Made by a program: the position numbers and the translations under genes. The notes beneath the pieces are model-generated. The model worked only from the letters and a program-made list of their open reading frames with translations. It searched no databases and was not told the origin of the DNA. From a virus (Duplodnaviria > Caudoviricetes): a stretch of DNA of 64,000 nt. Below are positions 14,388 through 64,000 of the stretch, piece after piece; within the stretch, counting starts at the first letter, position 1; every line of letters begins with the position of its first letter. The DNA is taken from the IMG/VR virus record IMGVR_UViG_2875499822_000002, positions 24,252 through 88,251 of that record, one strand, 5' to 3'.

Positions 14388-14450
14388 ATGACCACGCGCC
14401 CTGAGCCGTCCCGCCGCTTCAGCATTGCACCGATGATGGATTGGACGTAA
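14388..14450 (+). pseudogene. dusA: 5' fragment of dusA (tRNA-dihydrouridine synthase A) ending at an att junction
   Basis: MTTRPEPSRRFSIAPMMDWT then TAA; APMMDWT is the conserved DusA N-terminal motif; start could be TTG 14352. Confidence 0.85.
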
Positions 14451-14698
14451 AAACCCCGTATTTACTGGCCAAAACACTGATTCGTGTGCAATCCGTGTGC
14501 AGCATTCTATCCGCCTGCCATACACTCTCGCCCTACCTCCTACCCTCGTTGGACTGACAAAACTGGACAGACGAAGGCTCGCAACCTACCGCCAATCCTC
14601 GGCACTACCGACTGGCACTACCCATTCATCTCCAGCCGAGCAGGCCTCTGACCCTGGCCATCACCTTGATATGAGATAAGCTGACTCCACCGTGAATC

Positions 14699-16579
14699 GT
14701 GGAGGATGTGAACGTGGCTGAGCAGGATCAGATGGAAAAAAAACCCGTGATGGACGTTGCGACCTTTGAGGACTTTGAGCACATCAGTCTTTCGTCAATC
14801 CTTACCATGACGAACACCCTCCACTTCCATACATTGCAGGAAGTATTCCAAAAGTCGGCTCAAGTTGCCAAAGAGTCGGGAGATGTAGCAGCCGAACGCG
14901 CCTACAGCGTCCTTGCTGTGATATGCAGTTACCACTTTAATCCAAACAGAACTGACGCATTTAGCCCTCAAATGATCATGGATGGTCGGAGGTCACTAAT
15001 ACCGAGTGACTTCATAGGTGAACAGCAGGACGCTTTAACGCAAGTCACAGAGCATATCGATCATCCACTTCTTCGTGCACGGATCGCGGACAGTTGCTGG
15101 TACACGAACAGAAAGCTTCACAAAATGGCTGAGATCGCATCTACCTCATACCTCGACGCCGTGAATCTATTCTTCACTGGAGGTTTGCTGTATCAGTACG
15201 AGTCAGACTTTGAAGTCCCATCAAAGGTTGTTGACCTGATTGAACGAGCATTTTCAATATATGCTTCAACAGGAAAAAGAAAAGCGATCCCAGACTACGC
15301 AAAAGAAACTTTCACCAAGGCTTACGAGACCGCAAAATATAAATTAAATTTAATTGCATTCCACAGACTCTCCTCCCTCGGACAGAACTACGGCTTACTT
15401 GAATGGGGCGTGATAGCGAAGACCGCAGAGCTGATGGCGCTTGCCACCAAAGATAAACAGTATGCAGAAGCAGTGAAAAAAGTCTGGCTCCACGCTGCTT
15501 ATGCATATTCCAAGGTGGGTGAAAAAGAAGCATCGACCAAATGTAAGATAAGCGCTGTCGACCAGACACTAAGAATGAGAGATGCAATCGGCTCAAACAT
15601 GGCCAAAGCGTCATGGACAAGAGATGCGATTGGTGAGCTCAGGTCAATTGGGGGAATGAGCGATAGAATCAATGAGTTAAAGCTTGAGCTTCAGCAATTC
15701 GAAGAGGACTCTCTATCTGAACTGGGTGAGTTCAGCATACCTGTAGACTTAACCGACGCACGACAGGCTACAATTGATGACTTCGAGGGACTGGAAGTTC
15801 ACGAAATGCTATATCGCCTTGCGTTTGCGTCAAGACCTCCCGAGAAGATAGCCTTACATAAAAATAGCCTTCGAAAGAAAAGCAAATACTTCCTTTCTTC
15901 AAGCATGGGAAAAAGTTATTCAGACCAGCAAGGAAAAATGATTGCTCAATCTCCATCAGCTGGTTTCGGAGATAAACCTTCCGAAGAATGGTTCGATCAT
16001 GAAGCCCTTACAGAAGTTGGATTCCACTATCATGTAGAAACCGAGGCCTTCATCAAGCCCGCTTGCATTACCATGACTGAGTACGAGTGCATTGATGAAA
16101 GACATTTGGAGCCACTCGTTTACCACAGTGCTTTCGTACCACCGGGGCACGAGGCAATTTTTGCACTGGGTTTCGCACGAATGATTCAAGGAGACATGGT
16201 TTCCGCTGTTCATGCACTCATTCCGCAACTGGAAAACTCTCTTCGATACGTACTCATCAACCGAGGTGCTAGAACTGCAAAGCTCAATGTAGATCTTACT
16301 CAGGAAGATCAGTCTCTCAGCCAAATGTATTCGAATCGCAAAGATGAGTTAGAGCAAGCGTTCGGCAAGGACATAACTTATATGTTCCATTTACTCTTCA
16401 ACCTAAAGGGCGGGCCTATGCTGAGACACGAAATGGCTCACGGAAAGCTCACTGCTAGCAGCTGCTACAGTGCCCCGTGTATTTACGCATGCTGGCTAAT
16501 GTTCCATGTCACTTGCAGCCCTCTTGTAAGACTCTGGAAAACTCACATTGAGCCAGCAATTCAAGAAGTAGTTCATTAG
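14699..16579 (+). CDS. DUF4209-like protein with C-terminal HEPN-type motif
   Basis: LIPQLENSLR...LRHEMAHG (RxxxxH); AT-richer than element A. Confidence 0.7.
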   Translation: MEDVNVAEQDQMEKKPVMDVATFEDFEHISLSSILTMTNTLHFHTLQEVFQKSAQVAKESGDVAAERAYSVLAVICSYHFNPNRTDAFSPQMIMDGRRSLIPSDFIGEQQDALTQVTEHIDHPLLRARIADSCWYTNRKLHKMAEIASTSYLDAVNLFFTGGLLYQYESDFEVPSKVVDLIERAFSIYASTGKRKAIPDYAKETFTKAYETAKYKLNLIAFHRLSSLGQNYGLLEWGVIAKTAELMALATKDKQYAEAVKKVWLHAAYAYSKVGEKEASTKCKISAVDQTLRMRDAIGSNMAKASWTRDAIGELRSIGGMSDRINELKLELQQFEEDSLSELGEFSIPVDLTDARQATIDDFEGLEVHEMLYRLAFASRPPEKIALHKNSLRKKSKYFLSSSMGKSYSDQQGKMIAQSPSAGFGDKPSEEWFDHEALTEVGFHYHVETEAFIKPACITMTEYECIDERHLEPLVYHSAFVPPGHEAIFALGFARMIQGDMVSAVHALIPQLENSLRYVLINRGARTAKLNVDLTQEDQSLSQMYSNRKDELEQAFGKDITYMFHLLFNLKGGPMLRHEMAHGKLTASSCYSAPCIYACWLMFHVTCSPLVRLWKTHIEPAIQEVVH

Positions 16580-16598
16580 AGCCCAACAGACCCCACCA

Positions 16599-16734
16599 GC
16601 GAGTTCGCAGTCACACTCTGTGAATTAACTCTCATCAATAGCGAATTCACACCATCACACTGCGAATTCGCTATAGCCACTTGCAAAATCGCACTCCCCT
16701 ATTGCGATTTCGCATTCACACTTTGCGAAAGTCA
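16599..16734. repeat. Seven-copy array of a palindromic decamer (consensus GCGAATTCGC) at exact 21-bp period
   Basis: Copies start at 16599, 16620, 16641, 16662, 16683, 16704 and 16725. Confidence 0.85.
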
Positions 16735-16813
16735 GGTTATACACTCAACTTTCTATAATTTATTGTTGAAACATCAAAAGCTCCAGTTGCACAATAAATC
16801 TAGAGCTTCTTTT

Positions 16814-16853
16814 TAGCCAGTTGTGTCTATGTCAGACAATAGACGACTAGCTA
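16814..16853. promoter_or_regulatory. Candidate oriT: imperfect inverted repeat upstream of mobC
   Basis: TAGCCAGTTGTGTCTATGTC-A-GACAATAGACGACTAGCTA; minus strand reads ACTGGCTAA, resembling ColE1-type nic ACTGG^CTTA. Confidence 0.45.
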
Positions 16854-16916
16854 CTCACATCCCTCCGGGTGTTGCGTTAAATGGGCTCGATAACAATAAA
16901 AATAAAGGTGGGTCAG

Positions 16917-17210
16917 ATGAAAGATGAGATCAAGCAAAACAAAGATTCAAGGATCACGATAAGACTAACTAAGTCTGAGCTCGAAACGCTTGAAGCAAAG
17001 ATGTCCCAGGCCGGCTACAAAGCTGCTGGTGCATTCATTCGAGACTTCGTAGTCAGCAATAGCGTCAAGCCGAAAATCAGCGGAGATGTCGTTCAGATCG
17101 CACGAGAGCTGATGAACTTGGCATCTATGATTAACGCCGAATACCCTGGTGATGTACTCCTGGAAAAAGTTAAGCGTATCGCTCAAATCAATGCTGGGGG
17201 TGCCCTATGA
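16917..17210 (+). CDS. mobC: MobC/NikA-like relaxosome accessory (ribbon-helix-helix) protein
   Basis: RITIRLTKSE..LE.K...AG....FIR motif; ATGA overlap with the relaxase. Confidence 0.85.
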   Translation: MKDEIKQNKDSRITIRLTKSELETLEAKMSQAGYKAAGAFIRDFVVSNSVKPKISGDVVQIARELMNLASMINAEYPGDVLLEKVKRIAQINAGGAL

Positions 17211-18361
17211 TTGGCAAAATCTTCCCCAAGTCAGCAGGCTCTTTTAAGGGGCGCATCCGCTACATTTTTGGTTGCACTAAGCATGACCATGAGATCACGG
17301 GTATCAGGACTATTGACTCTAACTGCCTAAGTTCAGACCCGCTCCCTGGCATCCTTGCAGGCGATGAAACTGGTGTACAGGAAATGATCCGGGAGTTCGA
17401 CAGTGTCGAAGCTATGAGACGCATGTCTATCGACTCAGACAAGCCAATTAAGCCCGTTTTCCACGCGATGCTTTCCCTGCGCCCCGGCGAGTCCCTCACG
17501 ACGTCCCAGTGGCGCAAAGCAGTCCAGACGTACATGAACGACCTGGGCTTCGACGAGACCAACCAATTCGTCGCTGTCATGCATCAAGACAAAGATCATC
17601 AACACGTCCACATCGTCGCCAACAGGATTCGCCTCAATGACGAGTTCTCAATGGTAAAGGACAGCAACGAGCGAAGCGTCAGCCTGGACTCCGTCTCCCG
17701 GATCGAAGACCGCTTCGGCCTCACCAAAGCTCCGAAGCCCAAAGACACCTGGGGAGTCTCAATCAGCCACGCAGAGCTCCAAGCATCAATCCGCGACAAC
17801 GACCTACCTTTGAAGCACAAGATGATTGCGAAGATCGCCGGAGCAATCGAGTCCACCAACGCCGTCCAGGGCGACATGTTCGACTTCGTCCGAGGGCTCA
17901 GGAGGCAAAAAGTCTACATCCACCTCACGCTCAACGAAGATGGCCAACCCAAGGGCATCAGCTATGAGTTTGACGGCAAACATATATCCGGTAGGCAACT
18001 CAAGCGCTCAAGACTCACATGGCACAAACTAACCACACAGGAAGGAATAAAGTATGACCCCGAAACCATTCACGAGCTTCAGAGAGAAATTGCGAGAAGA
18101 GATAGCGAAGAACAAGAAAGAGCTAGACTCTACTACTTTGAGTTCATCCCGCTCTCAGCTCGGAGAAGGAAACCCATCTACATCAAGTTCACAGCAAGAG
18201 ACTACCAAGTACAAAAGTTGATTAAGCAAATATTGGAAATCATCGAAGCTCTATTTGACACGCTCTTCAAGCCCCAAGAGTGCCGGCTCAAGCGCAGCTA
18301 CATTGAGTACAGCCCTGGCACTCCACTAAGCATCCCAGATGAAGAGGAGCTTACTCTTTGA
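17207..18361 (+). CDS. Relaxase, MOB_P/VirD2-like
   Basis: Motif I Tyr (SFKGRIRY), motif II PVFHAMLSLRPGE, motif III HQDKDHQHVHIVANRI. Confidence 0.92.
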   Translation: MIGKIFPKSAGSFKGRIRYIFGCTKHDHEITGIRTIDSNCLSSDPLPGILAGDETGVQEMIREFDSVEAMRRMSIDSDKPIKPVFHAMLSLRPGESLTTSQWRKAVQTYMNDLGFDETNQFVAVMHQDKDHQHVHIVANRIRLNDEFSMVKDSNERSVSLDSVSRIEDRFGLTKAPKPKDTWGVSISHAELQASIRDNDLPLKHKMIAKIAGAIESTNAVQGDMFDFVRGLRRQKVYIHLTLNEDGQPKGISYEFDGKHISGRQLKRSRLTWHKLTTQEGIKYDPETIHELQREIARRDSEEQERARLYYFEFIPLSARRRKPIYIKFTARDYQVQKLIKQILEIIEALFDTLFKPQECRLKRSYIEYSPGTPLSIPDEEELTL

Positions 18362-18818
18362 GATACTGCTTGTAATAGCTCATCAGCAAACGGGCGTCGA
18401 GCAACGCATGATGCGGAAGCTCCGGCGCTTCTTCGCCCTCTACACCTTTCTCATTGAAAAGATCAATAAGGTTTATTGGTGTATTTGCAACGTTGCTTGG
18501 CCACTTGCCTTGATGATAAACAACGGAGCAAAAGAACTCCCAATCCCAAGCGGGAGCGTCCGACATGATCTCTACGCTGTCAAATTTAGCAAGAAAGCTC
18601 CAGAGCTTGTTCCTAGCAGACTCTGTGGAAATTAGGGCTGAACCACCATTTAACTGTGGCAACACATTATGAACAACAAACTCGCTGCAATCATCGAGAA
18701 TGTAATTATCATTAAGCTCAAAGTAGAGCTCTTGCCCATCCTCCGCTACGAGCGCCATTGAGATGAGCTTAGAACTCGCATTTAGCTGTGTGAATTCACA
18801 ATCCACAACGATTTTCAT
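18351..18818 (-). CDS. DEDDh 3'-5' exo(ribo)nuclease (Rv2179c-like)
   Basis: VDCEFT, AWDW and HHALLDA motifs. Confidence 0.8.
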   Translation of the reverse strand: MKIVVDCEFTQLNASSKLISMALVAEDGQELYFELNDNYILDDCSEFVVHNVLPQLNGGSALISTESARNKLWSFLAKFDSVEIMSDAPAWDWEFFCSVVYHQGKWPSNVANTPINLIDLFNEKGVEGEEAPELPHHALLDARLLMSYYKQYLKE

Positions 18819-19498
18819 AGTGAGTTCCTTTTTGCTAGCTCGTGTTTAGCTATCATCGCCATCTCTTCTTTCCAACACCGGACAAACTTCATCCAGTCGC
18901 CCGCATAGCTTCCTAGAATGGAAGCCGTTGAGCCAGCGCTCGCTTGCAGAAAACGCTCACACCAAGGTTCTGGAATGTCGTCGAAACCCACATAGTCGAT
19001 TGACCCAGGCGCAGATGTGACGGGCACCATCGCGACGACCTCATCAATCCCAAGAGCATGAGCCTCACCAATAGGATCAGCCTCGTCCGCATTAGCTATC
19101 GCAGCCAGAGCTTCGAGAAGTGGCTCTGCGGCTTTTGACCCTGGTTCTACCGGCTCTAACCGCCATATTGCCTCCCGACGCTCACGCTCACGATCATAAA
19201 GCCTTCGCCAGGCGATCCGGAATCTATCAAATTCATCTTTTAAGCCTTGCGTGGTTTTCTTATCAGCTAAAAGTATGCGTACCTGATCTTCTACGGAGTC
19301 AGAAATAGAACTGAGACTGTTGGGATGTACGCCCCTAAGTGCCAAGGCGAATGCAAACTTTGTTAGTTCATCCGACACTCCGGCCATTTCTCTAATACCC
19401 TCAATCGGATTGTTTTCGAGGTATAACCGAGCTACGCCTTGTGCATTCAATATGCTTCTAAAACCCTTCATAACCTGCGACTCCCCAACTCCACACAT
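18815..19498 (-). CDS. Hypothetical protein
   Basis: 227-aa ORF ATGA-coupled to the nuclease; start uncertain. Confidence 0.6.
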   Translation of the reverse strand: MCGVGESQVMKGFRSILNAQGVARLYLENNPIEGIREMAGVSDELTKFAFALALRGVHPNSLSSISDSVEDQVRILLADKKTTQGLKDEFDRFRIAWRRLYDRERERREAIWRLEPVEPGSKAAEPLLEALAAIANADEADPIGEAHALGIDEVVAMVPVTSAPGSIDYVGFDDIPEPWCERFLQASAGSTASILGSYAGDWMKFVRCWKEEMAMIAKHELAKRNSL

Positions 19499-19570
19499 CC
19501 GATGTTAGTGTTTGCTGGCAAACCTGGCAAGTAGTACAATCTGGCGACCTAAGTCAAGCGTGGCAAAGAC

Positions 19571-19828
19571 ATGACCCCCCCCAACGGCGGAGTTGCTGAC
19601 TTCGTTGAAAAGCTTGCAGCGCAGCATGGTGTGACTGGTGAAATGGACAGGATTGACAGAATGGCCAGCACCTTCACAAGGTTGTCTGGTGATGATGTTG
19701 AACTTGACAGAATTGAGCGCTTGTTAGTAAGTCTTGGTAGAAAAGGCATCTTAGACCTAGACGACATATTCGTGCTGGAAGAGTAGTACCTGGATCATGA
19801 GAAGAACAAAGAAGCTCCCCATGAATGA
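19571..19828 (+). pseudogene. Small hypothetical gene with a probable premature TAG at 19784-19786
   Basis: Frame continues YLDHEKNKEAPHE to TGA 19828, overlapping the next ATG at 19821. Confidence 0.45.
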
Positions 19829-20117
19829 AATGGATCTAACTGTCAGCTCGAATATATACGAAGCTGGAGTTCGCTACGTAAATGGTGAAATTTCCGTTGA
19901 AGGAATTATTTATGGAACGGTGGATGGGGAACCGGTGGACGGCGACCGCATGACTACACATCGACTTCATAAAGCCTGGGTGGGCGACATGGGAATCGGA
20001 CTGCAAGACAGCCAGGGAAACCGTTACCTGGTCATCGACTTTGACGAAATGCAGGAGTTTGCCTTACAGAAGCTCCACCTGCTGCTCGGCCTGGCCTACC
20101 TGGGGGAAGCCGCATGA
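19821..20117 (+). CDS. Hypothetical protein
   Basis: ATGA-coupled to the next ORF. Confidence 0.6.
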   Translation: MNEMDLTVSSNIYEAGVRYVNGEISVEGIIYGTVDGEPVDGDRMTTHRLHKAWVGDMGIGLQDSQGNRYLVIDFDEMQEFALQKLHLLLGLAYLGEAA

Positions 20118-20533
20118 GGATCAACTGGCGGGTGCCCTTACGAGCCCTCTGGCGGATTCTGAAGTGGATTCTCTCAGTCATCGACACCCTGGTTGGGCTG
20201 CTGATAACGAGCCTGTTTATGCCAGTGGTGGCCATAGTGCTGCTAATGAGAAAGGGAGCCCAAAGGATCGGCAGGATGGTCAAGCGAGCTATGCGATCAA
20301 CAGATCACGATATGACTGATGTCTCCGTCGAGAATAGGTGGATGTACGGTCAGGTCGACGGCGACATGTCCGCATTCGGGATGTTCGCTGAGCTTCACTA
20401 CGACGTCAGGCTATCTCGGGAAGGCATGATCGTTAAGTCTCGGGACGGTAAGACCTTCCTGGTGAAGCAGATGAAAAAAGGCCAGTCCCCTGCAGAACTG
20501 GCCCCTCTCCTAGCTGAAGCATTCTTACGCTAA
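20114..20533 (+). CDS. Hypothetical membrane protein
   Basis: Hydrophobic segment around residues 19-43. Confidence 0.55.
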   Translation: MRINWRVPLRALWRILKWILSVIDTLVGLLITSLFMPVVAIVLLMRKGAQRIGRMVKRAMRSTDHDMTDVSVENRWMYGQVDGDMSAFGMFAELHYDVRLSREGMIVKSRDGKTFLVKQMKKGQSPAELAPLLAEAFLR

Positions 20534-20974
20534 CAACTCTCGCAATTTTGCAGGTGGCAGCCGGCATAGCTCAGACGCCGTGTAAGCCCCTGTGAGCATC
20601 AGCAAGGTGGCAGCGTCGTAGTCATGCATGTCACCGCCGATACTTCCCACGGCACACAACAGGTCGACCTGATCGTAGTCCGTGTACCTGACGCTGGTAT
20701 TTTTATTCTCCTCGGGTTCTTTAGCCTGCGTTGCACGAACTTTTAAATTAAGTTTACCAACTTCATTATTGGCCCTATTAATTAAAGCCCTTAGCCCGGC
20801 TTCGCCATAAGTCCCGATACTCTCTATAGCAATATCAATCAAATCTTCAACATCCACCGCATCATCATGCTCATACTCCAGACCGCAATCACATTCTTTA
20901 TCTAGATCACCCGACTTGATTAAAGCCCTGGCGATCTGATCTACATTGATACGAAGTGAGTTCTTGATACCCAT
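20525..20974 (-). CDS. Hypothetical protein
   Basis: 149-aa ORF with AAGGAAAATAAT RBS. Confidence 0.65.
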   Translation of the reverse strand: MGIKNSLRINVDQIARALIKSGDLDKECDCGLEYEHDDAVDVEDLIDIAIESIGTYGEAGLRALINRANNEVGKLNLKVRATQAKEPEENKNTSVRYTDYDQVDLLCAVGSIGGDMHDYDAATLLMLTGAYTASELCRLPPAKLRELLA

Positions 20975-21150
20975 ATTATTTTCCTTTTTTGGGGTCTCGA
21001 TTTAAACATCATATTGAATTGGACTGACCCACTCAATAAATAATTACAATCTATATGAAGGTAATTTGATGTCAAATAGCCCCGACCAGCTATTGCATGC
21101 CAGGAAACCCTTTATATAATGGACTTATAGAGAGATTTTCGGGGTTCAAG

Positions 21151-22122
21151 ATGAGCAAGAAGCTGTCGACATTACTTGTCGCAATCGCATTTCTATTGTC
21201 CAGCGTAACTGCAATTTCGGTTGCGCTTGCAATGTACGCATTGATCGACGACAAGAAGTTAGCGCTTCTATTTGCTGGCGCAGCGGTGCTCCTAGATATA
21301 TTTAAGTATCTGGCCTGGCCTGTGGCTATTCGTGTACTACGTGGCAGCAGCGCGGCTCTTACAATTGCCTGCGCCTTGATGCTGTCCGTAGTTAGTGGAT
21401 GGGCCACTTATGATCGCTTGATGACTTCGATCACCATCAGCAAAGCCACACACGAAGCCATGACTACTGAGCGTGTTACTGCTCTTACCACCCTGGCTCA
21501 GAAAGACTCTGCTCTTATCGCTCAATTAGATAGAGAGATCTCTGATGCGACTGCCCAAGCTAGTGACCTGCGCGTCCGTGGCATGGTTTCTAAAGCCCTT
21601 GAGCTCGAAGAGTCTGTCAGCACTCGTGCAGCAGCTCAGCGTGCTCAGGCTCTGGCGCGGATCAATTCTGGCTCTTTGGAAATCGCACAGATCAAGTCCA
21701 CAGTCGCAAAAGCATCCAGCTTGCCGCCCCTGCTGGCTCAATTGCTGTGCCTGGGATTTGCCATGTCTCTAGAGATCGTACCTGCACTGATTCTGACTGG
21801 CGTTCGTACCGCTAGACGCTCTAGCACGCATGTTGTAGCCTCATCAGCTATCGAAACGCCACCACTCGAAAATGGTGGGGCTGAGTTGCCACAGGAGACG
21901 CCAGAAACGCCAGAAACCCCGAAAACGCTGTTGGGAACGAACGACGAAATCCTGAAATCGCTGGTAACCCAGGTGGAAACGCTGACACCGGGCACTCCAG
22001 TCAGACTCAAGGATTTTGCGAGAAAAGCTAGGATCGGCAACCTACGTGCATGTGAGATTTTCAGGACTGCCGAGACCTTGGGAGTAATTAAAAAAACAAC
22101 CATCGGCTATGTTACGACATGA
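21151..22122 (+). CDS. Multi-pass membrane protein with coiled coil and basic C-terminal HTH-like tail
   Basis: Three N-terminal hydrophobic segments, Ala-rich coiled coil, a fourth hydrophobic segment and an ETP linker. Confidence 0.65.
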   Translation: MSKKLSTLLVAIAFLLSSVTAISVALAMYALIDDKKLALLFAGAAVLLDIFKYLAWPVAIRVLRGSSAALTIACALMLSVVSGWATYDRLMTSITISKATHEAMTTERVTALTTLAQKDSALIAQLDREISDATAQASDLRVRGMVSKALELEESVSTRAAAQRAQALARINSGSLEIAQIKSTVAKASSLPPLLAQLLCLGFAMSLEIVPALILTGVRTARRSSTHVVASSAIETPPLENGGAELPQETPETPETPKTLLGTNDEILKSLVTQVETLTPGTPVRLKDFARKARIGNLRACEIFRTAETLGVIKKTTIGYVTT

Positions 22123-22194
22123 CCGAAAACTCTATGAAGCTCGTTATTGGCAATGATAAGTTAGCCTTGCTACTTATCGATAAAGGGATGTTTT

Positions 22195-22518
22195 ATGAAG
22201 TTATATCGAGTTGCGTGGGCCATCTTCATGGTCTTAATTGTCGCCCCAGCTTTTTTGCTAGCATCTGCTACAGAGTCGCATAGCATAAGTGAAGTTGCTG
22301 ACGGAGCGTACAAACTCCTCTGTGACTTACATTTACCATATATAATCTCTGGCATTGTCGCGTACCCCGTCGCCATTGTCGCAACGCTACTGCCAAGTTC
22401 TAGTTCGCTGCTGCCATTTTTGGGGGAGATGATTTGGAAAGGTGTCGGAGTCATTCTCCTCGCCGCCGCATTTCTTAATATCCGCCCACCGTTTTACAAA
22501 AAAGAGGGACAGGAGTAA
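22195..22518 (+). CDS. Hypothetical membrane protein (moron)
   Basis: Three hydrophobic segments; 1-nt overlap with the next gene. Confidence 0.55.
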   Translation: MKLYRVAWAIFMVLIVAPAFLLASATESHSISEVADGAYKLLCDLHLPYIISGIVAYPVAIVATLLPSSSSLLPFLGEMIWKGVGVILLAAAFLNIRPPFYKKEGQE

Positions 22519-23153
22519 TGGCACTCGTCGGCCCGCGAAGCTTTAAGCAAGCAATAACGTTCTTAATTCCTTTTTGGATTTTGGGTGAGATATTCCTCGG
22601 TTTCATCAGAAGTCCACTCGGCGACAGATACACCGGGGAAGTATATGTCGTAACCGAAAAACATGGATTCCCAAAACCAGTGCAGCTCAACGCAAAACTA
22701 GATGTTGAGCTGGGCGATAGCTTGGACTTTTTCGATAAAATTAATGGTGGGAATATCCGCTTAAAATTTAGTGGAGAAGACCTGAACAAGCTAAAACAAG
22801 CTGGCATTGACCCGGCATTCTTGGATGAAAAAAACAACTCATCTTGCATTATAGAAAAATCTAAAACAGCTAGAAATCAGTCATTCTTTGCTGGATTTGA
22901 CAATAGTTATGAAGGCGGATATTCGAGCTACAGTTACGCTACTGACTATACGTTACGCAGGATGCCGGACAAGCCAAACTGCCATGCTATACATATAGGC
23001 GTGATTGACTTTGACAATATCCAGCTCGCGGTGACAGATCTGAATCCGACATCCTTTGTGTTTGCTAGTCTCACTCGTGAATCGCACATCGGATTCATTC
23101 AGCGAATGGTACTTAAACTCAGGTACAACAGAGACGATATAGCTAAGCTTTAG
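22518..23153 (+). CDS. Hypothetical membrane-anchored protein (moron)
   Basis: AGGAG RBS; N-terminal hydrophobic segment; AT-rich. Confidence 0.6.
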   Translation: MALVGPRSFKQAITFLIPFWILGEIFLGFIRSPLGDRYTGEVYVVTEKHGFPKPVQLNAKLDVELGDSLDFFDKINGGNIRLKFSGEDLNKLKQAGIDPAFLDEKNNSSCIIEKSKTARNQSFFAGFDNSYEGGYSSYSYATDYTLRRMPDKPNCHAIHIGVIDFDNIQLAVTDLNPTSFVFASLTRESHIGFIQRMVLKLRYNRDDIAKL

Positions 23154-25519
23154 AGCGTTCTGGTCACGGATACGACCAATGCACCAGAATCGGAATAGCC
23201 TGGCTTGTGAGCGGAGATCTCGAAAGTCAGGTTTTGATAGTAAACCCCGCCGTTCAGTGCCACCTCGTCATCAAACGTCCACGAGCTGCCAGTGATACCG
23301 CTCACCGTTTTTACAACCGCGCCCTCCGAGCGCACAACAACCTGGTACGTAGCATCACTCGCCTGATCGACATCATCCCCATAAAACACCACAGCCGGCA
23401 GCGAGCCCTCGCGCTTCCTCCAGGTGACAGTTGCCACACCTGAGATCTGCCCACCCTCAACTCCGTTCACGCGCACACGCCCAGGCATCCACGGAGACAC
23501 GTTCGCCCCAGCAACGCTGTACGAATGCACGACAGCATCATCGACATCGAGCACTCCTGTCTGCGTTCTCGGAAGCATCCTGATCGACACAGACTCACTC
23601 TTCGCATACTGCCAGTCAGTCACTCCAAAGCCTTCCGAAACAGCCCAAGCGCGAGCTCCCGCAGGGTGAGGCAACGGCTTAGTGTTAAACAGCCCACGGT
23701 TGACCAGACCCAAAGTAACCGTGGTCGAGTTGCCGGCTGCAGCAGTCTGATAGGAGATCCACTCCTTGCCGGCAGCACTGACGATCAGCATCAGACCAAG
23801 CCCTTGCCGCACCTCTTCGGCAGTAATCGACGACAGCTCAGCAGACGGCCCGGACAGCACCAGGCTCACATCAGTCCAGTCAGTACCCATCGCGGCACTC
23901 GTCGAGAACAAAGGTGTGAAAGGCATCGCTCCCGCATCGACGTAATCGCTATCCACTTCACTCCTAATCTGCAGCTGGTAATCCATTGCCACGCCCGGAT
24001 TCTCAGCCACGACCAAGACGCTCCCGGTGGTTTGATTTGTCGTCAAAATCACCGGAGCGTCAATGATGTCGAATCGGGTGATATCAGTCGGCTCGAATGT
24101 CGGCTTCGTCCACTGGCGTTCGGAGCCGTCTGCGTACACGCTCAGGAAGACACCAAAAACGTCCTGGACTAGCGTGAGGCGTACAGAGCCGTCTTGGGGA
24201 GCGCCGAGGTCGACGCCAGTGACACGCATGACCATGTTTTCGATGCCAAGGTCTGGCCAGGTCAAGCGAACCACATCACCGACTTCGGAGTGGGCCGGGG
24301 CTCTTGTGCATTCCGCTTTGCACGTTGCCAGCGGTACAGATATAGCCGTCATCTCCCGCATCGCGACCTTGGCTGCATTATCCCTCGTGCTGATCATGCT
24401 CATGGTCATTGTCTGAGAGTCGCTGTCACCCTTATGGATTCGCAGACCATTGTTTTGGGCGATAACTGTCCTCTCTGTGAAGTCATCTTCAATGCTGGTG
24501 AATTTAACCTTGAGCTCGTTTACTGCGGTTTCCAGAGACCCTCTGGTAAACCCAGTGAGGTTTTTCACGATAGAGGGAGTGAGGACTGGCAGGTCGTCAG
24601 CAACGTAATCATTGCGTATCAGCTTGAGTTTGAGAGCACCCGTCGCAGGGTCGGTATTGTGTGACCCCTGGATCACCTTCAGAACTTCGTCTACCACATC
24701 TCCGACCGCGCTTGATGAGTCGATAGCCACAGAAATCCCCAGGCCCTCTTCGTGCAGGATTTTTGCCGCTGCCGTAATGGAGTTCACATCAATAGAAGTG
24801 AACCCCAGGTCTGCGCCGTACATTCCGTTGACGAGCATCTCGTAAATGAAGAACGCAGGGTTAGCATCAAGGCCGATTTGCTCGTACTCGCCATATCGAT
24901 CATCCGGGGATTTTGGGAACCTGCTTACGTCGAACGCGACAGCCTGCGGACTTGACGAGTTGCCAATATACATCCCCTCCATGACCGCATAAGACACGCC
25001 TCGAATGGGCGATACGAGTTCTGCGCCAACCTGGTCGATCAGGTAGTCACTTGGAGCTTGAGTCAGAGTGCCAGGGTAGAACCTGAGCGTCCCAGAGATC
25101 CCCCCGGAGCCATTTTCGTCACCACCAAACAGAGTTGGCTTGTCGATGGAAATGGCACCGCCTGTTGATGTTCCAGTCCACGCCATTTTATCCCCGATTT
25201 TAACCCCACGAAGAATAACATCGGGCCCGTGGCATATCCCCAGCTGTACGCCCATGTAATATCGGTATCCGATGGTTGTCTTTTTGGAGCTAAATCCAGT
25301 TTTTGTTACTTTCTTAATCGGAGACGTCTTTAGATCTCCGTACCAAAGAACATTGGGGCCGGAAATGCGACGGGTTCCTGCAAGCACTTGAATTGGCCTT
25401 TCTGCAGCAGTTGGAAAGCTGAAATCTTCAAGTCCGGCAGCTTTTGGCTTTGAGAGTTTTGGCTTGATCAGTGCCACCCCCGCTATTAAGAGCAGAAGCG
25501 CGATTGCAATCGTCCACAT
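23150..25519 (-). CDS. Tail tip / host-specificity protein
   Basis: GPNVLWYGD, GYRYYMG..CHGP and DANPA motifs of siphophage tail-tip proteins; last gene of the tail operon. Confidence 0.85.
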   Translation of the reverse strand: MWTIAIALLLLIAGVALIKPKLSKPKAAGLEDFSFPTAAERPIQVLAGTRRISGPNVLWYGDLKTSPIKKVTKTGFSSKKTTIGYRYYMGVQLGICHGPDVILRGVKIGDKMAWTGTSTGGAISIDKPTLFGGDENGSGGISGTLRFYPGTLTQAPSDYLIDQVGAELVSPIRGVSYAVMEGMYIGNSSSPQAVAFDVSRFPKSPDDRYGEYEQIGLDANPAFFIYEMLVNGMYGADLGFTSIDVNSITAAAKILHEEGLGISVAIDSSSAVGDVVDEVLKVIQGSHNTDPATGALKLKLIRNDYVADDLPVLTPSIVKNLTGFTRGSLETAVNELKVKFTSIEDDFTERTVIAQNNGLRIHKGDSDSQTMTMSMISTRDNAAKVAMREMTAISVPLATCKAECTRAPAHSEVGDVVRLTWPDLGIENMVMRVTGVDLGAPQDGSVRLTLVQDVFGVFLSVYADGSERQWTKPTFEPTDITRFDIIDAPVILTTNQTTGSVLVVAENPGVAMDYQLQIRSEVDSDYVDAGAMPFTPLFSTSAAMGTDWTDVSLVLSGPSAELSSITAEEVRQGLGLMLIVSAAGKEWISYQTAAAGNSTTVTLGLVNRGLFNTKPLPHPAGARAWAVSEGFGVTDWQYAKSESVSIRMLPRTQTGVLDVDDAVVHSYSVAGANVSPWMPGRVRVNGVEGGQISGVATVTWRKREGSLPAVVFYGDDVDQASDATYQVVVRSEGAVVKTVSGITGSSWTFDDEVALNGGVYYQNLTFEISAHKPGYSDSGALVVSVTRTL

Positions 25520-25536
25520 AGTAGTACGCCTTGAAA

Positions 25537-29633: not shown

Positions 29634-29668
29634 TGTTATTATTCTTCTCGATCAGTAACTATATTTTA

Positions 29669-49403: not shown

Positions 49404-49412
49404 GAAAGGACG

Positions 49413-49610: not shown

Positions 49611-49884
49611 GAAGACACCTCGCAGCTCTAGCTCCAAGCTATCAAGTTGCGTGCCGATTTGAAAGCTCAAGGTTTGTCAGCAAGGGCAATGTGAAATTAT
49701 TTTATGGGTATGCCACTGATATACCCATCTGTATTTTCAGGGGTTGCAGCGGGGGTTTCGCTCTTTTTCTCGCTTTCAAGGGGCATGGTGCAAAAAATAT
49801 TGGTTGATCAAGTTTTAGCTCAATTGCAATACTAATCACATGCAACGACTGCTCAGCGGTCAATAACGAAAGAGAGATGTTTAT

Positions 49885-58402: not shown

Positions 58403-59095
58403 TTACTTCTTATTCAGCTGCTCCAGCAGGCTGCTCTGTGACTTGCCAAAATTCTTGACTAGATCAAGGTAACGCTTGGACTTTCGAAACTCTTCTTCCT
58501 CACCTTCGTAAGTGTAGTCGAAGCCAGCCTTTGTACACCATTCCTCCAGGGTCATCTTCGTACCATCTTGCCTGGGGCGAACCCACGGGCAATGGATGTT
58601 TTTGCACTGAAAGATAAATATAAAATGAACGCCATTTTGCTTAGCCACGCACTTATATTTCCTGGCATCGACTAGATCAGGGATGACACCTTTGCCTTCC
58701 CATATGATTCTGTCGTTGAGCGAATCGACCCAATCTGGCTGATACGTGTGTTGGGTGACGTAGCTAAGCTTGTAATGTTCTGGCTCATACTCGCAGTCTC
58801 TCAAGCCACCGAACAGTGTTGCCATTACTTCTAGCCAGCTTCTGAAGGGCTTCGGCACTGGTGGTAGTTCAGGAGGAAACAGTACGTCTTCCAGAGCTAC
58901 AGGCTTTCTCCCGAAGACTTGCTCGTTACGCTCGTTCCAGTTGAATTTCTGTCCAGCGTATCTGCAGGCTAGGCCAGTCTTGTAGACGAGCTCCAGATCA
59001 GTTTCCTTGTATCCATTCATTTTCATAAACAGATTTCTGATTTCCATGACCTCGCCCATATTGATGAGCTCGGGAATATTTAATGCTGTGGTCAT
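58403..59095 (-). CDS. T7 endonuclease I-like nuclease with N-terminal extension
   Basis: FRS.LE, YE...L.Y, H.Y.PDW, E.KG and D.RK motifs. Confidence 0.75.
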   Translation of the reverse strand: MTTALNIPELINMGEVMEIRNLFMKMNGYKETDLELVYKTGLACRYAGQKFNWNERNEQVFGRKPVALEDVLFPPELPPVPKPFRSWLEVMATLFGGLRDCEYEPEHYKLSYVTQHTYQPDWVDSLNDRIIWEGKGVIPDLVDARKYKCVAKQNGVHFIFIFQCKNIHCPWVRPRQDGTKMTLEEWCTKAGFDYTYEGEEEEFRKSKRYLDLVKNFGKSQSSLLEQLNKK

Positions 59096-59223: not shown

Positions 59224-61449
59224 TCAGACGTAGCGATTCATTTGGGCAAGCGAGCCTGGGGTGATCACATAAAATTTATGATCTGTGCTTTCCCTGCGTC
59301 TCACCTTTAATCCGAACTGAGAGAAAATCTTGCTGATCTCAGCTTTCTTCGCCTGGTCTGATTTCGGTGCTCCCATCTTGATTCCAAGGCTCAAGACATC
59401 AAATCGATGAGCATTCAATTTATCAAATAAGCAAATACTGTCTGAGCCCTCCCATGACTTCGATTCTGACATGACGGTGAGCGCCTCCCGCAGCAACCTG
59501 AGAGGCTTGAAAAGTGATTGGGTGGAAGTAATTCGTCCATCGTCGTTCATCAGCATGTCAAAATTTCGAATTTTAGACTCGCCTTCACCCTCGCCCCACA
59601 GCTTCGCATCAGCCTCAGTGAAGGTCTTTACACTCATGATTTCTTCAGCTTGAGCACGAATAACCTGGAAGCGCTGGGACTCATCTGCGGAGCCGGCGTC
59701 AGCCACCAGATCAACAATCTCTCGGGATGCTGGGGTGGAAGCGAGCAGCTTTGCAGTCACGTCATCCTTGACGACTTGCCGACCCTGGGCGTTCGCTACA
59801 AAACCTGCTTTAGACTCGTCATCATTGTGTTGAAGCACGCTGATCTGAAAGCCTTGGGCGAGCAGAGTTGCTGGAAGCGTGTTTGCGATGTTGTCTTTCA
59901 GCCATGCCTCATCGGAGCAATGCTTGTACTCAAGCGCTTTGAATCCAACGAGCTGGGACTCGGAATAGACTGCCAGGCGGATCTTTCTTTTGGTGACATC
60001 ATCAAGCGGAAGAGCACTCAGGGCTTCATCGATCTGCAGTCGCGCCTTATGGAAACTCACTTCAACTGCCTCGGCCTTGCTGTACTTGGCCGACCTGATT
60101 CCAACGACGAAGGACTTTGCTTTCCTATCGCGCCTCATCATCTGGATAGCGTCACGTGGGATAACCTGACCCTGGAATAAGCCGAAACGAGCATCGAAAT
60201 GACCTGAAGTGATAGAGAGGGCCGAGGTGATCACAGGGCTGTAAATCACTACCCGATAATCAGTGGTGTTGGGATCAGCGATGAATGCTGCCTGTTCCTT
60301 CCACTTGGCGTTGTCAGCAGTGATCACCAGAGGGGGCGGCCCACCTGCTTTTTCTATGGCTTTCGCCAAGGCTGTGGCCTCTTTGACCACATCGCAGGAG
60401 ACTAAAACCTTGCTTCCTTCGGCGGCAGCTCTGATAGCCAGTGCTCTAACATGGTTGATCTCCCCCAAGTGAACCTCGATCTTGGAGTGATCTTGCTTTT
60501 TCGAGAAAAGACGTGCCTCGCCGATCAGATCAGCACACCTGGTATCGATGTCGGCATCGCTGAGGATCACGTTAGCTGCGCGTTTGACGACAAAATTCAG
60601 AGCTTTCCATACCGCCTGGCGCTCTTTGACCTCGCCACCAAGGACGTGCGAGATGACCTGGGATGCTTCGTCGATCACAACCAGATCGACAGACTCAATG
60701 AACGCTTTGAATTTGTTCGCGGCCAGCGAGTTGACGACGATTTTCAGCCCTTGCGCCTGCTCGATCACCTCTAGGCTATTGCACTCGTCGTAGCTAACGA
60801 TACCCGGAAGGTTGGCGATGTTTTTATTGATCGACCGGCGATGCGAGATCACCAAGACTTTCTTGCCAGCGTCCAGGTACTGCTGCAGGACGGGCTCAAT
60901 GATCTTGGACGTTTTGCCATAGCCGGTGGGAAGGCTCAACAGGTATTTACCGCCGTTCGCTAGGATCGCGTCTCTGACTGATTCAGGACTCGCAGGCGTC
61001 TCGCCTTCAGTCTTTAGGAGGTTTGAGCGGGCATCCATCTGCGCGGTCATCTCCGCGAGCTTGCGGTAAATCAAGTTGTAGCAAGCTTCCACTGGACGAC
61101 CCGTTGCCTGGGCCAAGCACTCAGCTTTGCTGTCGAGCTTTCCTGAGACAAAAGCGTCGCGGGCCACTTCGAAGGCTGCTCTGTCGAAAGCGTCGTCGCT
61201 GTCGTCGTTGCGAGCAATGAGCAGTGCGATGTCGAGCTTGCGCATGTTGTAGATGCAGGTGGTGATCTGACCTTCAGTCTCACTATAGAGACCAGATGCT
61301 GTCTTGTACGCTGCAGAGACCGCTCGTACTGCATCACCTTCGATACTGATCAGGCGACTCCTAGATGGAAAGTCGTCTTTGGCTTGTGCGGCCACTTCGA
61401 AGACTTCTGGGGTGTTGGCGATCAGGGTCACTTCTTTTGCAATATTCAT
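59224..61449 (-). CDS. SF2 helicase-like origin-binding replication protein (UL9/CyRepA1-like)
   Basis: PTGYGKT, VISHR, VIDEASQ, YSP.I.S..SI and Q...R.R motifs. Confidence 0.75.
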   Translation of the reverse strand: MNIAKEVTLIANTPEVFEVAAQAKDDFPSRSRLISIEGDAVRAVSAAYKTASGLYSETEGQITTCIYNMRKLDIALLIARNDDSDDAFDRAAFEVARDAFVSGKLDSKAECLAQATGRPVEACYNLIYRKLAEMTAQMDARSNLLKTEGETPASPESVRDAILANGGKYLLSLPTGYGKTSKIIEPVLQQYLDAGKKVLVISHRRSINKNIANLPGIVSYDECNSLEVIEQAQGLKIVVNSLAANKFKAFIESVDLVVIDEASQVISHVLGGEVKERQAVWKALNFVVKRAANVILSDADIDTRCADLIGEARLFSKKQDHSKIEVHLGEINHVRALAIRAAAEGSKVLVSCDVVKEATALAKAIEKAGGPPPLVITADNAKWKEQAAFIADPNTTDYRVVIYSPVITSALSITSGHFDARFGLFQGQVIPRDAIQMMRRDRKAKSFVVGIRSAKYSKAEAVEVSFHKARLQIDEALSALPLDDVTKRKIRLAVYSESQLVGFKALEYKHCSDEAWLKDNIANTLPATLLAQGFQISVLQHNDDESKAGFVANAQGRQVVKDDVTAKLLASTPASREIVDLVADAGSADESQRFQVIRAQAEEIMSVKTFTEADAKLWGEGEGESKIRNFDMLMNDDGRITSTQSLFKPLRLLREALTVMSESKSWEGSDSICLFDKLNAHRFDVLSLGIKMGAPKSDQAKKAEISKIFSQFGLKVRRRESTDHKFYVITPGSLAQMNRYV

Positions 61450-61590
61450 ACTTCTTTCCTTTTTGATACTCAAGGTTCTCTCTGCCTTGATACAAACAGT
61501 ATTGAAAATGAGCACAACCAAGCACAAGCGAAAAATGCAAACTAGACAAAATATTTATATCTAATAGACAAAATAATTTCGAAGTTATTT

Positions 61591-61710
61591 AAAAGCAGAT
61601 TCTCTTAGCCAAAGTTTTTAGGGCACCCCCACTACCTCTCTCTTTATAAGAAGAAAATAGGTAGCAGGGGTAGCGTGGGTGGCTTGCAGCCTTTATATGT
61701 TTGATTCAGA
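61591..61710. repeat. Copy 2 of the duplicated hairpin element, in the divergent rep intergenic region (candidate origin)
   Basis: TTCTCTTAGCCAAAGTT at 61600-61616; IR 61625-61637/61659-61671; TAGACAAAATA direct repeats at 61543 and 61565. Confidence 0.75.
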
Positions 61711-61888
61711 GAATCTCAGCAGTCAATACCCTACAGAAATTAAACACTCACAAACCAATACCAACCCAAGGAAAGCCCATTCAAAACCCAGCCCAACATT
61801 TTTTTTGATGAATAGTATTGCACCACCCTTTGCTCCATTTGTTTAATGGACACAGATGAGCGAGAGACTCGTCAAAAGGAGATTCAGC

Positions 61889-63208
61889 ATGATCAACTAT
61901 TCAACACAAAGTTGGGCCTCAACGAACAGCCTGACAGCCGCTAACGCCAGCAACTTATTATCTTTCTACGAAAAGCATTTCGCAGAACCACTTGTTCTTG
62001 AAGATAAAGAAAGAGCTTCCACTTTCGTTCCTGCTCTGTTCCGCATCCCAACTAGGCATGCAGACAACGTCGTGTCTTCGACCCTGGTCGTGTTTGACGT
62101 TGATCAGAAGCTCGGCGAAGGCTACGACGACGACATGATCCAGCTCGAAGAGATTGAGGATGCCCTGATCGACTTGTGTCTTGAGCACATTGTCTACACA
62201 AGCCACTCGCACACCCAGACAGCTCCGCGCTTCCGGATCATCCTCACGCCATCACGCCCTGTTCTCCCCGAAGAGCACGATCAGTTCTACGCTGCGATCC
62301 TTGAGCAGATCGATGACTTCCTAGGCGGGAGGATGCTGCGAGCTCTAGATCCTTGCTGGAAGAGTCTCTCGCACTGCTTCTACGTGTACACCGCGCACCC
62401 TGACCGCAAGCAATACGCAATCAGCTTCTACAATCCTGGCAGGCCAGCAGACGTACTTGAGTACCTGCTACACAATTCCACCTATGGCCTGGATGTCGAA
62501 TACAAGCCGGGTGCCGCTCGAAAAGCCACAGGTGGTACAGGCGCACGCGGACGTTCATACCAGCTGAACCGCATCGTCGGCGGCATGATCACGTCATCAA
62601 CAGAAGAAGAGATTGCACAGCGGTTGTTTGAGTACGACAACGCTGAACATGCAGGCAATGAATACTTCCGCGACCGGCAGTACAGCCGAAACCGCCCACG
62701 TCCAGGCGAGAGCCAAGAAACTGCGGCATGGCGCTCATGCAAGATCTTCACGAAGTCTCACATCAACTCTCTAAAGCGCAAATTCCGCAAGCAAGACATG
62801 CAGATCGTCAACGCCAAGGCGCAGTCCAGGGAGCCCATGCCAACCCATGACGCGATGATTAAGGTCAGGTCTGTCAAAAGCCAACTCACAAAAAAAGGTG
62901 GCCAGTCCGCCCTTGTCGAGCTTCAGGTGATGTCGGGTGAGCACGCAGGCCGTCACTTCTGGCACCGGTTCTACGGGGAAGGCAGTCATCCCACGGCTAT
63001 CAAGATCAGCAAATCGATTCAAGACAAAATCGCCAAAGCCACCAGAACCGATATGCAGCAACTGAAGGACTTAATTAAAGCCGAGGGGCATATAATTCTG
63101 GCCAGAATCAAACAAAACCCAGGAACTAACGGCTTCCCCGCTCAAAACGAAATCGGTGATTTACATTTGACAACAAACCACACACAACAGAAGAATGTGG
63201 TATTATAA
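61889..63208 (+). CDS. AEP-like primase with C-terminal DUF669-like (ssDNA-binding) domain
   Basis: VFDVD, YTSHSH and PRFRI motifs; C-terminal GEHAGR.FW...NEI; AAGGAG RBS. Confidence 0.7.
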   Translation: MINYSTQSWASTNSLTAANASNLLSFYEKHFAEPLVLEDKERASTFVPALFRIPTRHADNVVSSTLVVFDVDQKLGEGYDDDMIQLEEIEDALIDLCLEHIVYTSHSHTQTAPRFRIILTPSRPVLPEEHDQFYAAILEQIDDFLGGRMLRALDPCWKSLSHCFYVYTAHPDRKQYAISFYNPGRPADVLEYLLHNSTYGLDVEYKPGAARKATGGTGARGRSYQLNRIVGGMITSSTEEEIAQRLFEYDNAEHAGNEYFRDRQYSRNRPRPGESQETAAWRSCKIFTKSHINSLKRKFRKQDMQIVNAKAQSREPMPTHDAMIKVRSVKSQLTKKGGQSALVELQVMSGEHAGRHFWHRFYGEGSHPTAIKISKSIQDKIAKATRTDMQQLKDLIKAEGHIILARIKQNPGTNGFPAQNEIGDLHLTTNHTQQKNVVL

Positions 63209-63253
63209 GTAATGCTTTGAAGTTTCCTTCCTTTTCTTCTTAGCATCACCCCT

Positions 63254-63291
63254 AGCCCCTCACTGGTCTCTCTCCCAGCGGGGCTTTTTTT
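63254..63291 (+). terminator. Intrinsic terminator
   Basis: AGCCCC..CTGG/CCAG.GGGGCT stem followed by a T-run. Confidence 0.75.
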
Positions 63292-63524
63292 CGTCCCGAG
63301 ATCCGATCAGAGTCTCTTCTAAGCATACTCATAGTTAAGGGTATGCTGTCCGCATACTATGAAATAAATGGGTTCCGTGCCTTGACGGCGGTCTGGAAAA
63401 TAATTTTACATATATTGACACGAGCACAACCGCTCGGACTGGCTCGCTAGGTACGACACCCAGGGCCACAGCGTAAAAAGGTATCGCTGACAGCCACGAT
63501 GGCGGGCATTACCGGGTATGAGAG

Positions 63525-63746
63525 ATGCAAAAGGATATCGCGCAGGACATGGGCTTTTTGACCGAAAACGATGTTGCGGAGCTGTTCGGCGTTACCAAGC
63601 CCACTTTGGAGAACTGGCGCAGGCATGGCACCGGCCCGGCCTACGCTTACGCCGGCAATTGCTTTTTTTACCCTGTGCAGGGAATCAGCACGTTCCTGAT
63701 GGCTAGGGTGAAGGGGTTCGGCTTCAGCCAGGGACAAGGAGCATGA
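63525..63746 (+). CDS. AlpA/excisionase-like HTH protein
   Basis: FLTE.DVA...GV...TL..WR..G.GP.Y motif. Confidence 0.85.
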   Translation: MQKDIAQDMGFLTENDVAELFGVTKPTLENWRRHGTGPAYAYAGNCFFYPVQGISTFLMARVKGFGFSQGQGA

Positions 63747-64000
63747 ACATGGAAATGAATATGGATCATGCCACCATGCGCAATACCCTGGCGAATGAGC
63801 TTGGTTTCATGACTGAAGACCAGGTTGCATTGCTTGCGATGGTGAAACCTACTACTGTCGAAGACTGGAGGAAAAGAGGAAATGGCCCGGCGTATACCCG
63901 CTTTGGATCTGCATTCTTCTATGCTATTGATGACGTCAAGGATCATATCAAATCGCTGATGAAGCAGCGGAGCAGAGAAGATATCATCCGGTCAATCTAA
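63743..64000 (+). CDS. AlpA/excisionase-like HTH protein (paralog)
   Basis: FMTEDQVA....V...T..DWR..G.GPAY motif. Confidence 0.85.
   Translation: MNMEMNMDHATMRNTLANELGFMTEDQVALLAMVKPTTVEDWRKRGNGPAYTRFGSAFFYAIDDVKDHIKSLMKQRSREDIIRSI

Follow-up and report, generated by a model that had tools for sequence, protein, structure and literature searches.

A siphovirus-like Pseudomonas prophage at dusA carries a candidate oriT, mobC, and a relaxase gene ahead of its virion genes

The stretch of DNA analyzed here, a 64,000-nucleotide window, comprises bases 24252-88251 of an 88,251-base IMG/VR "provirus" record (IMGVR_UViG_2875499822_000002), the end of the record being window position 64000. From position 14448 to beyond 64000 the window holds one temperate siphovirus-like Pseudomonas prophage of ~50 kb, referred to here as phage B, which is integrated in the 5' end of dusA and stands in tandem there with an unrelated myovirus-like prophage (prophage A) on its left. 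Near its left end, phage B carries a mobilization (mob) module composed of a candidate origin of transfer (oriT), mobC, and a relaxase gene. As judged from sequence comparison, this hybrid architecture is well supported. We assign a probability of roughly 0.55 to the reading that phage B is a tailed prophage with an inherited relaxosome module, which would be mobilizable by helper conjugation besides spreading as virions, and we infer that conjugative mobilization is the most likely function of the module. Coordinates are collected in Table 1. In the labels used for relatives of the relaxase, L-numbers denote loci and G-numbers denote the records or elements compared.

An intact mobC-relaxase pair follows a candidate oriT

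The product of mobC matches the NikA-like family PF21983 at 33.7 bits (cut-off, 27), and the relaxase matches PF03432 at 82.5 bits (cut-off, 24.6) over residues 57-172; its C-terminal 200 amino acids (aa) gave no family match. Relaxases of the MOBP type are marked by an N-terminal catalytic tyrosine together with a His-rich metal-binding motif. All 17 of the full-length relaxases (380-398 aa) keep residues Y19, H86, S90, H126, D128, H131, H133, and H135 unchanged, with the layout H126-x-D128-x2-H131-x-H133-x-H135 plus H86/S90 and with Y19 as the candidate catalytic tyrosine. Ratios of nonsynonymous to synonymous substitution (dN/dS) for the relaxase were 0.081-0.202 in all eight pairs compared, at near-saturated dS values of 1.28-1.73, which indicates that the gene is under purifying selection. 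Full length was retained by 17 of the 19 copies examined; the damaged ones, split in L031 and reduced to 204 aa in L010, both lie outside a phage context. The initial annotation had described the mobC-relaxase pair as intact looking, and the two family matches above cut-off, the overlap of the genes, and the invariant motifs bear this out.

The stretch from 16580 to 16916 is noncoding, and the 300 bp upstream of mobC contain eight inverted-repeat pairs. These 300 bp were aligned for the window and 19 loci, L009 being dropped as its locus starts inside mobC. Sixteen close relatives share with the window near-invariant blocks just before the ribosome-binding site, as well as iterated inverted repeats further upstream of those blocks; the divergent loci L011-L013 do not align in this region. 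The repeats and their conservation in the 16 close relatives uphold the proposed oriT as a candidate, which accompanies mobC and the relaxase in phage and island contexts alike. The block upstream of mobC presumably resembles MOBP-type nick regions, a likeness on which we do not rely. The leader of mobC had also been noted to follow the style of the virion genes. This proved correct, in that it is nearly the same 21-mer as the leader of the major-tail gene (18 of 21 bases in common) and resembles the leaders of the capsid, portal, tape measure, and holin genes. As the island copies described below have the same leader, it is only a loose link between the module and this kind of phage.

The module is collinear with virion genes in related phages

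Twenty relaxase relatives at 65-82% identity were compared: 11 at IMG/VR loci, confirmed from 13 pattern matches, and 9 at loci in Pseudomonas-group genomes, the genome scan having given 50 pattern matches of which 10 were confirmed. A Bacteroidales hit at 28% identity (L038) was left out of all counts. The same tail genes follow in the same order downstream at 10 of the 20 loci (L003, L004, L005, L007, L008, L009, L011, L013, L029, and L033), six are without them (L006, L010, L030, L031, L032, and L034), and four are too short to tell (L012, L035, L036, and L037). Collinearity with the window, starting at the mob module, holds in every one of the six records compared whole; it reaches the primase-like gene in G001-G004 and G017 and, in G015, the record end within the large terminase gene. 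Co-occurrence of relaxase and virion genes, which the initial annotation had offered as a check, was thus found in half of the relatives and in all six whole records, but not at the six loci that lack tail genes. Between G017 and the window, protein identity is 40-70% across the virion genes and 69% in the relaxase, and in G017 the module and an integrase still occupy opposite ends; as divergence runs throughout at 40-70%, module and phage would have diverged together.

In G001-G004 the integration module is a 459-aa tyrosine recombinase encoded directly upstream of mobC, the sole PF00589 match in each record, and an excisionase gene stands at the opposite end. G001 and G002 have a tRNA-Leu gene next to the integrase gene; the records of G003 and G004 start with the integrase gene. 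The ~50 kb of G001 and of G002 are enclosed as a whole by imperfect direct repeats, 28-33 nt long, of the tRNA 5' half; in G003, whose left end is truncated, only the right-hand copy is seen, and no third copy was found inside the tRNA-Leu-type elements. CheckV completeness of G001-G004 is 95, 96, 61, and 91%, respectively. A circular form would join excisionase, attachment site (att), integrase, and then mobC, which is the layout of one element. Because six whole records are collinear, one repeat pair and one integrase serve the tRNA-Leu type, and the relaxase appears to be under purifying selection, the view that the mob module is an inherited part of the phage lineage, and not a neighbor of it, is supported. 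The same findings, with the repeat pair enclosing module and virion genes together, sustain the structural half of the earlier claim that phage B is a hybrid.

The elements with the 459-aa integrase (G001 and G002, which correspond to L017 and L020; L032-L034; and L036) abut the 5' end of tRNA-Leu(UAA), and their duplicated att core is the tRNA 5' half, not the usual 3' end. ARAGORN calls some of these tRNA copies tRNA-Phe(aaa). The 459-aa integrase itself scores just 21-29 bits on PF00589.

Phage B begins at a dusA fragment and runs past the end of the record

The dusA fragment at 14388-14447 translates as MTTRPEPSRRFSIAPMMDWT and is followed by a stop codon to 14450; homology to the dusA starts of relatives stops at 14446. 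The last 13 residues of the fragment match Dus N termini, L050 reading MNRKFSVAPMMDWTDRH... (PF01207, 289 bits) and L031 matching as well. A dusA 5' fragment also precedes the mob module in five relatives (L029, L030, L035, L037, and L008). The fragment therefore places the true left end of the second element, phage B, at 14448, the boundary that had been annotated initially. The G+C content drops from ~0.60 to ~0.50 near 14.4 kb, and no tRNA genes were found within the window. The dusA core with its 5' fragment is present once in the 88-kb contig, in agreement with the earlier statement that no second att lies inside the element.

The description of the element as att bounded holds for its left side and not for its right, where neither an att nor the phage B integrase is visible because the record ends at 64000, inside the last of two excisionase-like genes. 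Two relatives cover this end: L049 aligns to window 61601-64000 and L050 to 62333-63726, each at 75% identity. Both continue with an HTH_17 gene and then a minus-strand integrase gene (380-384 aa; PF00589, 78-82 bits), after which comes a Dus gene in L050; in L049 the next identified neighbor is bacA, a gene that flanks dusA in L031. To judge from these relatives, phage B would encode its integrase immediately beyond 64000. Identity between the L050 integrase and int373, the integrase encoded at 13138-14259, is 33% (E, 3e-50).

We first considered int373 as the integrase of phage B, as homologues stand left of the mob module in G005 (61% identity) and in L029 (a truncated copy). In G005 a lambdoid early region that includes Erf, an exonuclease, and methyltransferases ends in the homologue together with a PrtN-family excisionase (phrog_1300), and in the window the integrase/PrtN-family pair brackets cargo of prophage A. 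On account of these two contexts and of the far-end integrase of the relatives, int373 was assigned to prophage A. The single PF00589 match in the 88-kb record (13222-13683) accordingly falls outside phage B. Prophage A consists of upstream contig DNA and window 1-14259. Its structural genes encode baseplate, tail fiber, tape measure, portal (phrog_21), protease, and small terminase, and its early genes include a PrimPol/DUF5906 primase, CII, a Cro-like gene, an S24 repressor, and a PrtN-family gene at 7263-7538. The tandem arrangement of two prophages at dusA, the position of the integrase off the contig, and the presence of the same module on islands without phage genes had escaped the initial annotation.

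Two further observations concern prophage A. Between its PrtN-family excisionase-like gene and its integrase gene sits a two-component pair, where G005 has those two genes adjacent; a two-component system carried as prophage cargo (7263-14259) is unusual. In two stranded RNA runs, a short abundant RNA of ~125 nt maps to window 14197-14323 on the plus strand, antisense to the 5' end of the prophage A integrase gene, with sharp molecule ends at 14196/14197 and the adapter reached at 14320-14323.

The same module heads islands without phage genes

At L030, L032, L034, and G005, the module precedes defense and toxin-antitoxin genes (GmrSD-like, a Cap15 domain, an ABC-3C system, HEPN-RES, an Xre antitoxin, and MvaT), and at L031 a 5-kb remnant immediately precedes dusA. 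The phrog_145 portal was found in none of the five genomes of L030, L031, L032, L034, and L035; it is present in the genomes of L029, L033, and L036, or three of four when the genome of L037 is counted. Directly upstream of mobC stands the 459-aa integrase in eight cases, a 398-aa protein of no known family in G005, L030, and L031, PDC-S39 in the window and L035, and a truncated integrase in L029. The 398-aa protein, which occupies the att-proximal slot held by PDC-S39 in the window, is 96-99% identical among its three carriers and matches nothing in Pfam or PADLOC.

A maximum-likelihood tree of 18 relaxases sorts them neither by context nor by att type. Support of 100/100 joins phage L009 to island L034, islands L006 and L030 fall inside an 88/97-supported group of nine that otherwise consists of phage copies, and L034 retains a 154-residue tail-protein remnant right after its relaxase gene. 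As islands share the head of integrase, oriT, mobC, and relaxase with phages, the two would exchange it or interconvert. Because relaxase clades mix contexts and a tail remnant persists in L034, we tentatively suggest, at rather less than even odds, that phages and phage-less defense islands might be alternative states of one element family, with repeated conversions between prophage and mobilizable island. Such an element might spread, in an equally tentative extension, in its own virions where the 40-kb structural block is present and by conjugation where the block is absent or the recipient has no receptor.

Cargo genes are transcribed in lysogens

Three raw RNA runs carry the prophage, with 96-97% of the aligned reads at least 99% alike; two of the runs are stranded. 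Sense-strand depth was 85-220 over PDC-S39, 35-113 over the RNase-H-like gene and o227 (18503-19836 being expressed), 87-316 over 21838-23171, and 0-28 over the tail genes (sampled at 23172-32499). With tail genes silent and cargo genes on, the prophage looks repressed. Transfer genes of integrated elements are commonly repressed. In run X24, both strands are covered evenly at 10-30 everywhere, so that expression and DNA carry-over are indistinguishable there. Run X15, listed as "DNA?", is probably RNA; on window 12500-32499 its contig ends and depths track transcript boundaries (16596, 21865, and 23137), and it has adapter tails. No excision or circular-junction reads were seen in the runs, the only joint being a four-read back-step at 28310/28045 in one run. 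Within the minus-strand tail genes, window 27174-28507 shows plus-strand depth of 23-64, with neighboring bins mostly below 5; this signal could be an embedded or antisense transcript, and open reading frames (ORFs) lie at 27226-27426 and 27609-27863.

Discussion

If phage B is mobilizable, MobC would bend the candidate oriT of the excised circular genome, or of the prophage in place, and the relaxase would nick it through Tyr19 and the His triad. A co-resident conjugative plasmid or integrative and conjugative element (ICE) would then receive the relaxase-bound single strand at its coupling protein and mating pore, and the phage genome could in this way reach cells to which virions cannot adsorb. 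Normal spread would be by headful-packaged virions.

Several results weigh against this reading. The relaxase is not a TraI/MobA(P) equivalog, scoring 73.4 bits on NF041893 (cut-off, 250; E, 1.8e-20) in a match that spans only model positions 1-164 of 502, so that a domain is shared. Its structural model, from a 17-row alignment, is poor (predicted local distance difference test [pLDDT], 61.6; predicted template modeling score [pTM], 0.35), and Foldseek gave no match to that model at an E value of ≤0.001, TrwC (rank 16) and MobA of R1162 (rank 42) both appearing weakly. The nearest plasmid relaxases are 27-29% identical. IMG/VR loci are biased to phage context, and of the nine genome loci two have tail genes and four do not. 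Neither a right att nor the phage's integrase is present in the window, and no repressor was recognized among 24 early-region ORFs (Pfam at an E value of ≤1). In the two stranded lysogen runs, sense depth over the relaxase is 2.6-9.7, near that of the silent tail genes (0.5-28), and a coupling protein (PF02534/PF12696) was found in none of the five draft genomes carrying relatives, so a resident helper is not the rule. These last two results speak against frequent use of mobilization.

The missing coupling proteins would also suit a role of relaxase and oriT in vertical maintenance, in which rolling-circle replication of the excised circle prevents loss of phage and island copies; the relaxase of ICEBs1 is said to start such replication of the circular element. 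Retention of the module in islands that have no phage replication genes is in line with maintenance, and purifying selection fits it equally well. We nonetheless regard it as unlikely, since phage B has replication genes of its own (helicase and primase-like) and since gene pair and layout are those of mobilizable plasmids, although the two roles are compatible. That the module is passive baggage, taken from an island on a single occasion, silent today, and of no consequence to the phage, is suggested by relaxase transcripts near background in the lysogen and by the broken copies in L031 and L010. It is quite improbable given dN/dS of 0.08-0.20 at near-saturated dS, 17 of 19 copies at full length with invariant catalytic residues, both broken ones being in nonphage remnants, and an unchanged position of the module in phages whose proteins have diverged to 40-70% identity.

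Two explanations that separate the module from the virion genes, or put it to another use, fare worse. A small integrative mobilizable element (IME) at 14.4-23.15 kb might sit beside a separate prophage, as the module heads nonphage islands, as a 5-kb remnant lies upstream of dusA in L031, and as the locus accretes tandem elements, with prophage A on the left. Yet no att copy, integrase, or transposase is found near 23.15 kb, in the tRNA-type relatives a single integrase and a single repeat pair serve the whole 50 kb, whose far end carries the excisionase, and the junction to the tail gene is the same in 10 relatives; we consider this very improbable. Equally hard to credit is a helper-satellite relationship, in which islands would keep the head because the phage terminase recognizes something there and would ride in phage particles. 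It would account for the genes that L030 and G005 share with the phage besides the head (an MvaT-like gene, an o305 homologue, an RNase-H-like gene, and o227) and for the mixing of island and phage copies in the relaxase tree, but there is no known pac site here, the islands show no capsid-remodeling or small-terminase genes, and the conserved genes are a textbook relaxosome pair. The inherited, mobilizable module thus stays our preferred account.

Phage B shares features with several known systems. A dedicated integrase family targets the dusA 5' end (Farrugia et al. 2015, PMC4482086), and the elements described in the accessible text of that study resemble phage B in their position, with a replacement 5' end, in integrases with the same C-terminal motifs, and in PrtN-family partner genes nearby; that text does not mention a relaxase or oriT, and here two elements stand in tandem at the site. 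Vibrio genomic islands that target dusA and are mobilized by IncC plasmids (10.1101/2021.06.18.448947) are likewise dusA inserts moved by a conjugative helper, but according to the part available they are SGI1 relatives and not phages. IMEs, defined as without autonomous transfer (PMC11389934), include iMOB IMEs that, as the available portion presents them, combine tyrosine-recombinase site-specific integration, a candidate oriT, an accessory protein, and a relaxase; like them, phage B has no mating pore or coupling protein and has defense cargo at its att-proximal end. Unlike them, it adds a complete virion, lysis, packaging, and replication set of ~40 kb as an autonomous transfer route, and with this set phage B is predicted not to depend on a helper for transfer as an IME does. 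Conjugation-related elements occur in only 6 of 223 phage-plasmids (PMC10123127). From the accessible text, these resemble phage B as virion-encoding temperate elements that hold relaxase or oriT determinants; they are extrachromosomal, with conjugation genes as rare exceptions, whereas the phage B lineage is integrated and its module conserved. Phage B is joined to chromosome-side DNA at dusA, and no partition genes were seen in the ORF family scan, unlike a phage-plasmid; nor is it an ICE, as that scan gave no type IV secretion system (T4SS) or coupling-protein match.

Small MobC-relaxase mobilizable plasmids of Enterobacterales (NZ_OW967880.1) have the same order of mobC and overlapping relaxase gene and the same nuclease domain, but identity is 27-28% over ~300 residues and the plasmids are 4.4-5 kb. 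A tblastn search of PLSDB with the relaxase matched 234 records, none of them at 60% identity or above. Against phage records it gave five weak matches (24-31% identity), four of which are in unannotated records, and a PDB sequence search with the relaxase gave no match. Megablast found no match for 14448-23150 among phages and plasmids or for 23150-45600 among phages. In full-text literature, a scope that leaves out most subscription journals, we found no account of a tailed prophage that is integrated and carries a conserved relaxase-oriT module, and the available parts of PMC12282955, PMC10484663, PMC5812530, and 10.64898/2026.01.13.699239 do not mention such prophages.

Phages and conjugatively mobilized elements are treated as separate transfer routes with separate host ranges. 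If the mobilizable reading of phage B is right, two transfer routes could free a phage genome and its defense cargo from a receptor-limited host range, and chromosomal DNA next to a prophage could likewise be transferred from an oriT within it. A module shared by phages and defense islands would offer a concrete system for studying the interconversion of prophages and mobilizable islands, and census tools that sort elements as either phage or IME would misfile such elements.

Remaining genes of phage B

The full head-tail-lysis set that had been annotated is indeed there: tail, lysis, head, packaging, and replication genes fill 23150-63208. The terminase, portal, capsid, tail, and lysis genes are full-length open frames with full-length alignments to homologues in G015 and G017. 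Integrase, transposase, T4SS, and coupling-protein families were matched by 0 of the 64 ORFs scanned, the exception being the HTH_17 excisionase-like genes at the right edge; together with the position of the one PF00589 match, this agrees with the earlier reports of no integrase or transposase between module and virion genes and of no T4SS or coupling protein.

Table 1. Features of the window, in order of position

Feature	Coordinates	Strand	Remarks
HD-GYP response regulator	7802-8917		Prophage A cargo
Hybrid histidine kinase, 1301 aa	8914-12819		Prophage A cargo
Tyrosine integrase int373, dusA-associated kind	13138-14259	-	Prophage A, not part of phage B
Left junction (attL)	14388-14450	+	20-codon dusA 5' fragment plus stop
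PDC-S39 cargo gene, DUF7380/DUF4209	14699-16579	+	PF24098, 168 bits; PADLOC PDC-S39, E 4.7e-102; att-proximal candidate defense gene
Candidate oriT and promoter region	16598-16916	+	Nested inverted repeats at 16598-16714; conserved block at ~16815-16880; directly upstream of mobC
mobC, NikA-like ribbon-helix-helix relaxosome accessory protein, 97 aa	16917-17210	+	Start shared with relatives; longest ORF starts at 16881
Relaxase, 384 aa, MobA/VirD2 (MOBP-like)	17207-18361	+	Nuclease domain, residues 1-180; start overlaps mobC stop
Accessory block: DEDDh/RNase-H-like exonuclease, o227, seven ORFs of no known family	18351-23153	Mixed	Syntenic in related phages
DEDDh/RNase-H-like exonuclease	18351-18818	-
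o227	18815-19498	-
Tail and connector module	23150-37429	-	Tail tip/host recognition, tape measure, pre-tape-measure chaperone, major tail, tail completion, head-tail adaptor
Insert: His_Phos_1 gene (PF00300) and 349-aa gene of no known family	33615-35279	+	Between tail chaperone and major-tail genes
MuF-like head protein	37550-38503	-
Spanin	38503-39060	-
Endolysin	38958-39494	-
Holin	39412-39624	-
Tail fiber and assembly genes	40381-43107	-
P22-type major capsid	43517-44677	-	Capsid and scaffold together, 43517-45552
Early/regulatory region	45653-53790	Mixed	Mostly unknown small genes
MvaT-type xenogeneic silencer	52331-52699	-	PF22055, 78.8 bits
PIN_12 protein	52783-53790	+
Portal, large terminase, small terminase, RuvC-like resolvase, endonuclease	53825-59095	-
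Helicase/origin-binding protein	59224-61527	-	CyRepA1-like, 195.2 bits (cut-off, 200)
Primase-like protein	61856-63208	+
Two HTH_17 excisionase-like genes	63525-64000	+	Second cut by contig end

Among 15 accessory proteins, PADLOC matched only PDC-S39, plus a weak DEDDh match. The two-gene plus-strand insert in the tail module looks like a moron pair. Islands L030 and G005, which are phage-less, have the MvaT-type silencer at 80-81% identity. CyRepA1 is a cyanobacterial plasmid replication family, which makes the phage helicase another plasmid-type gene in phage B.

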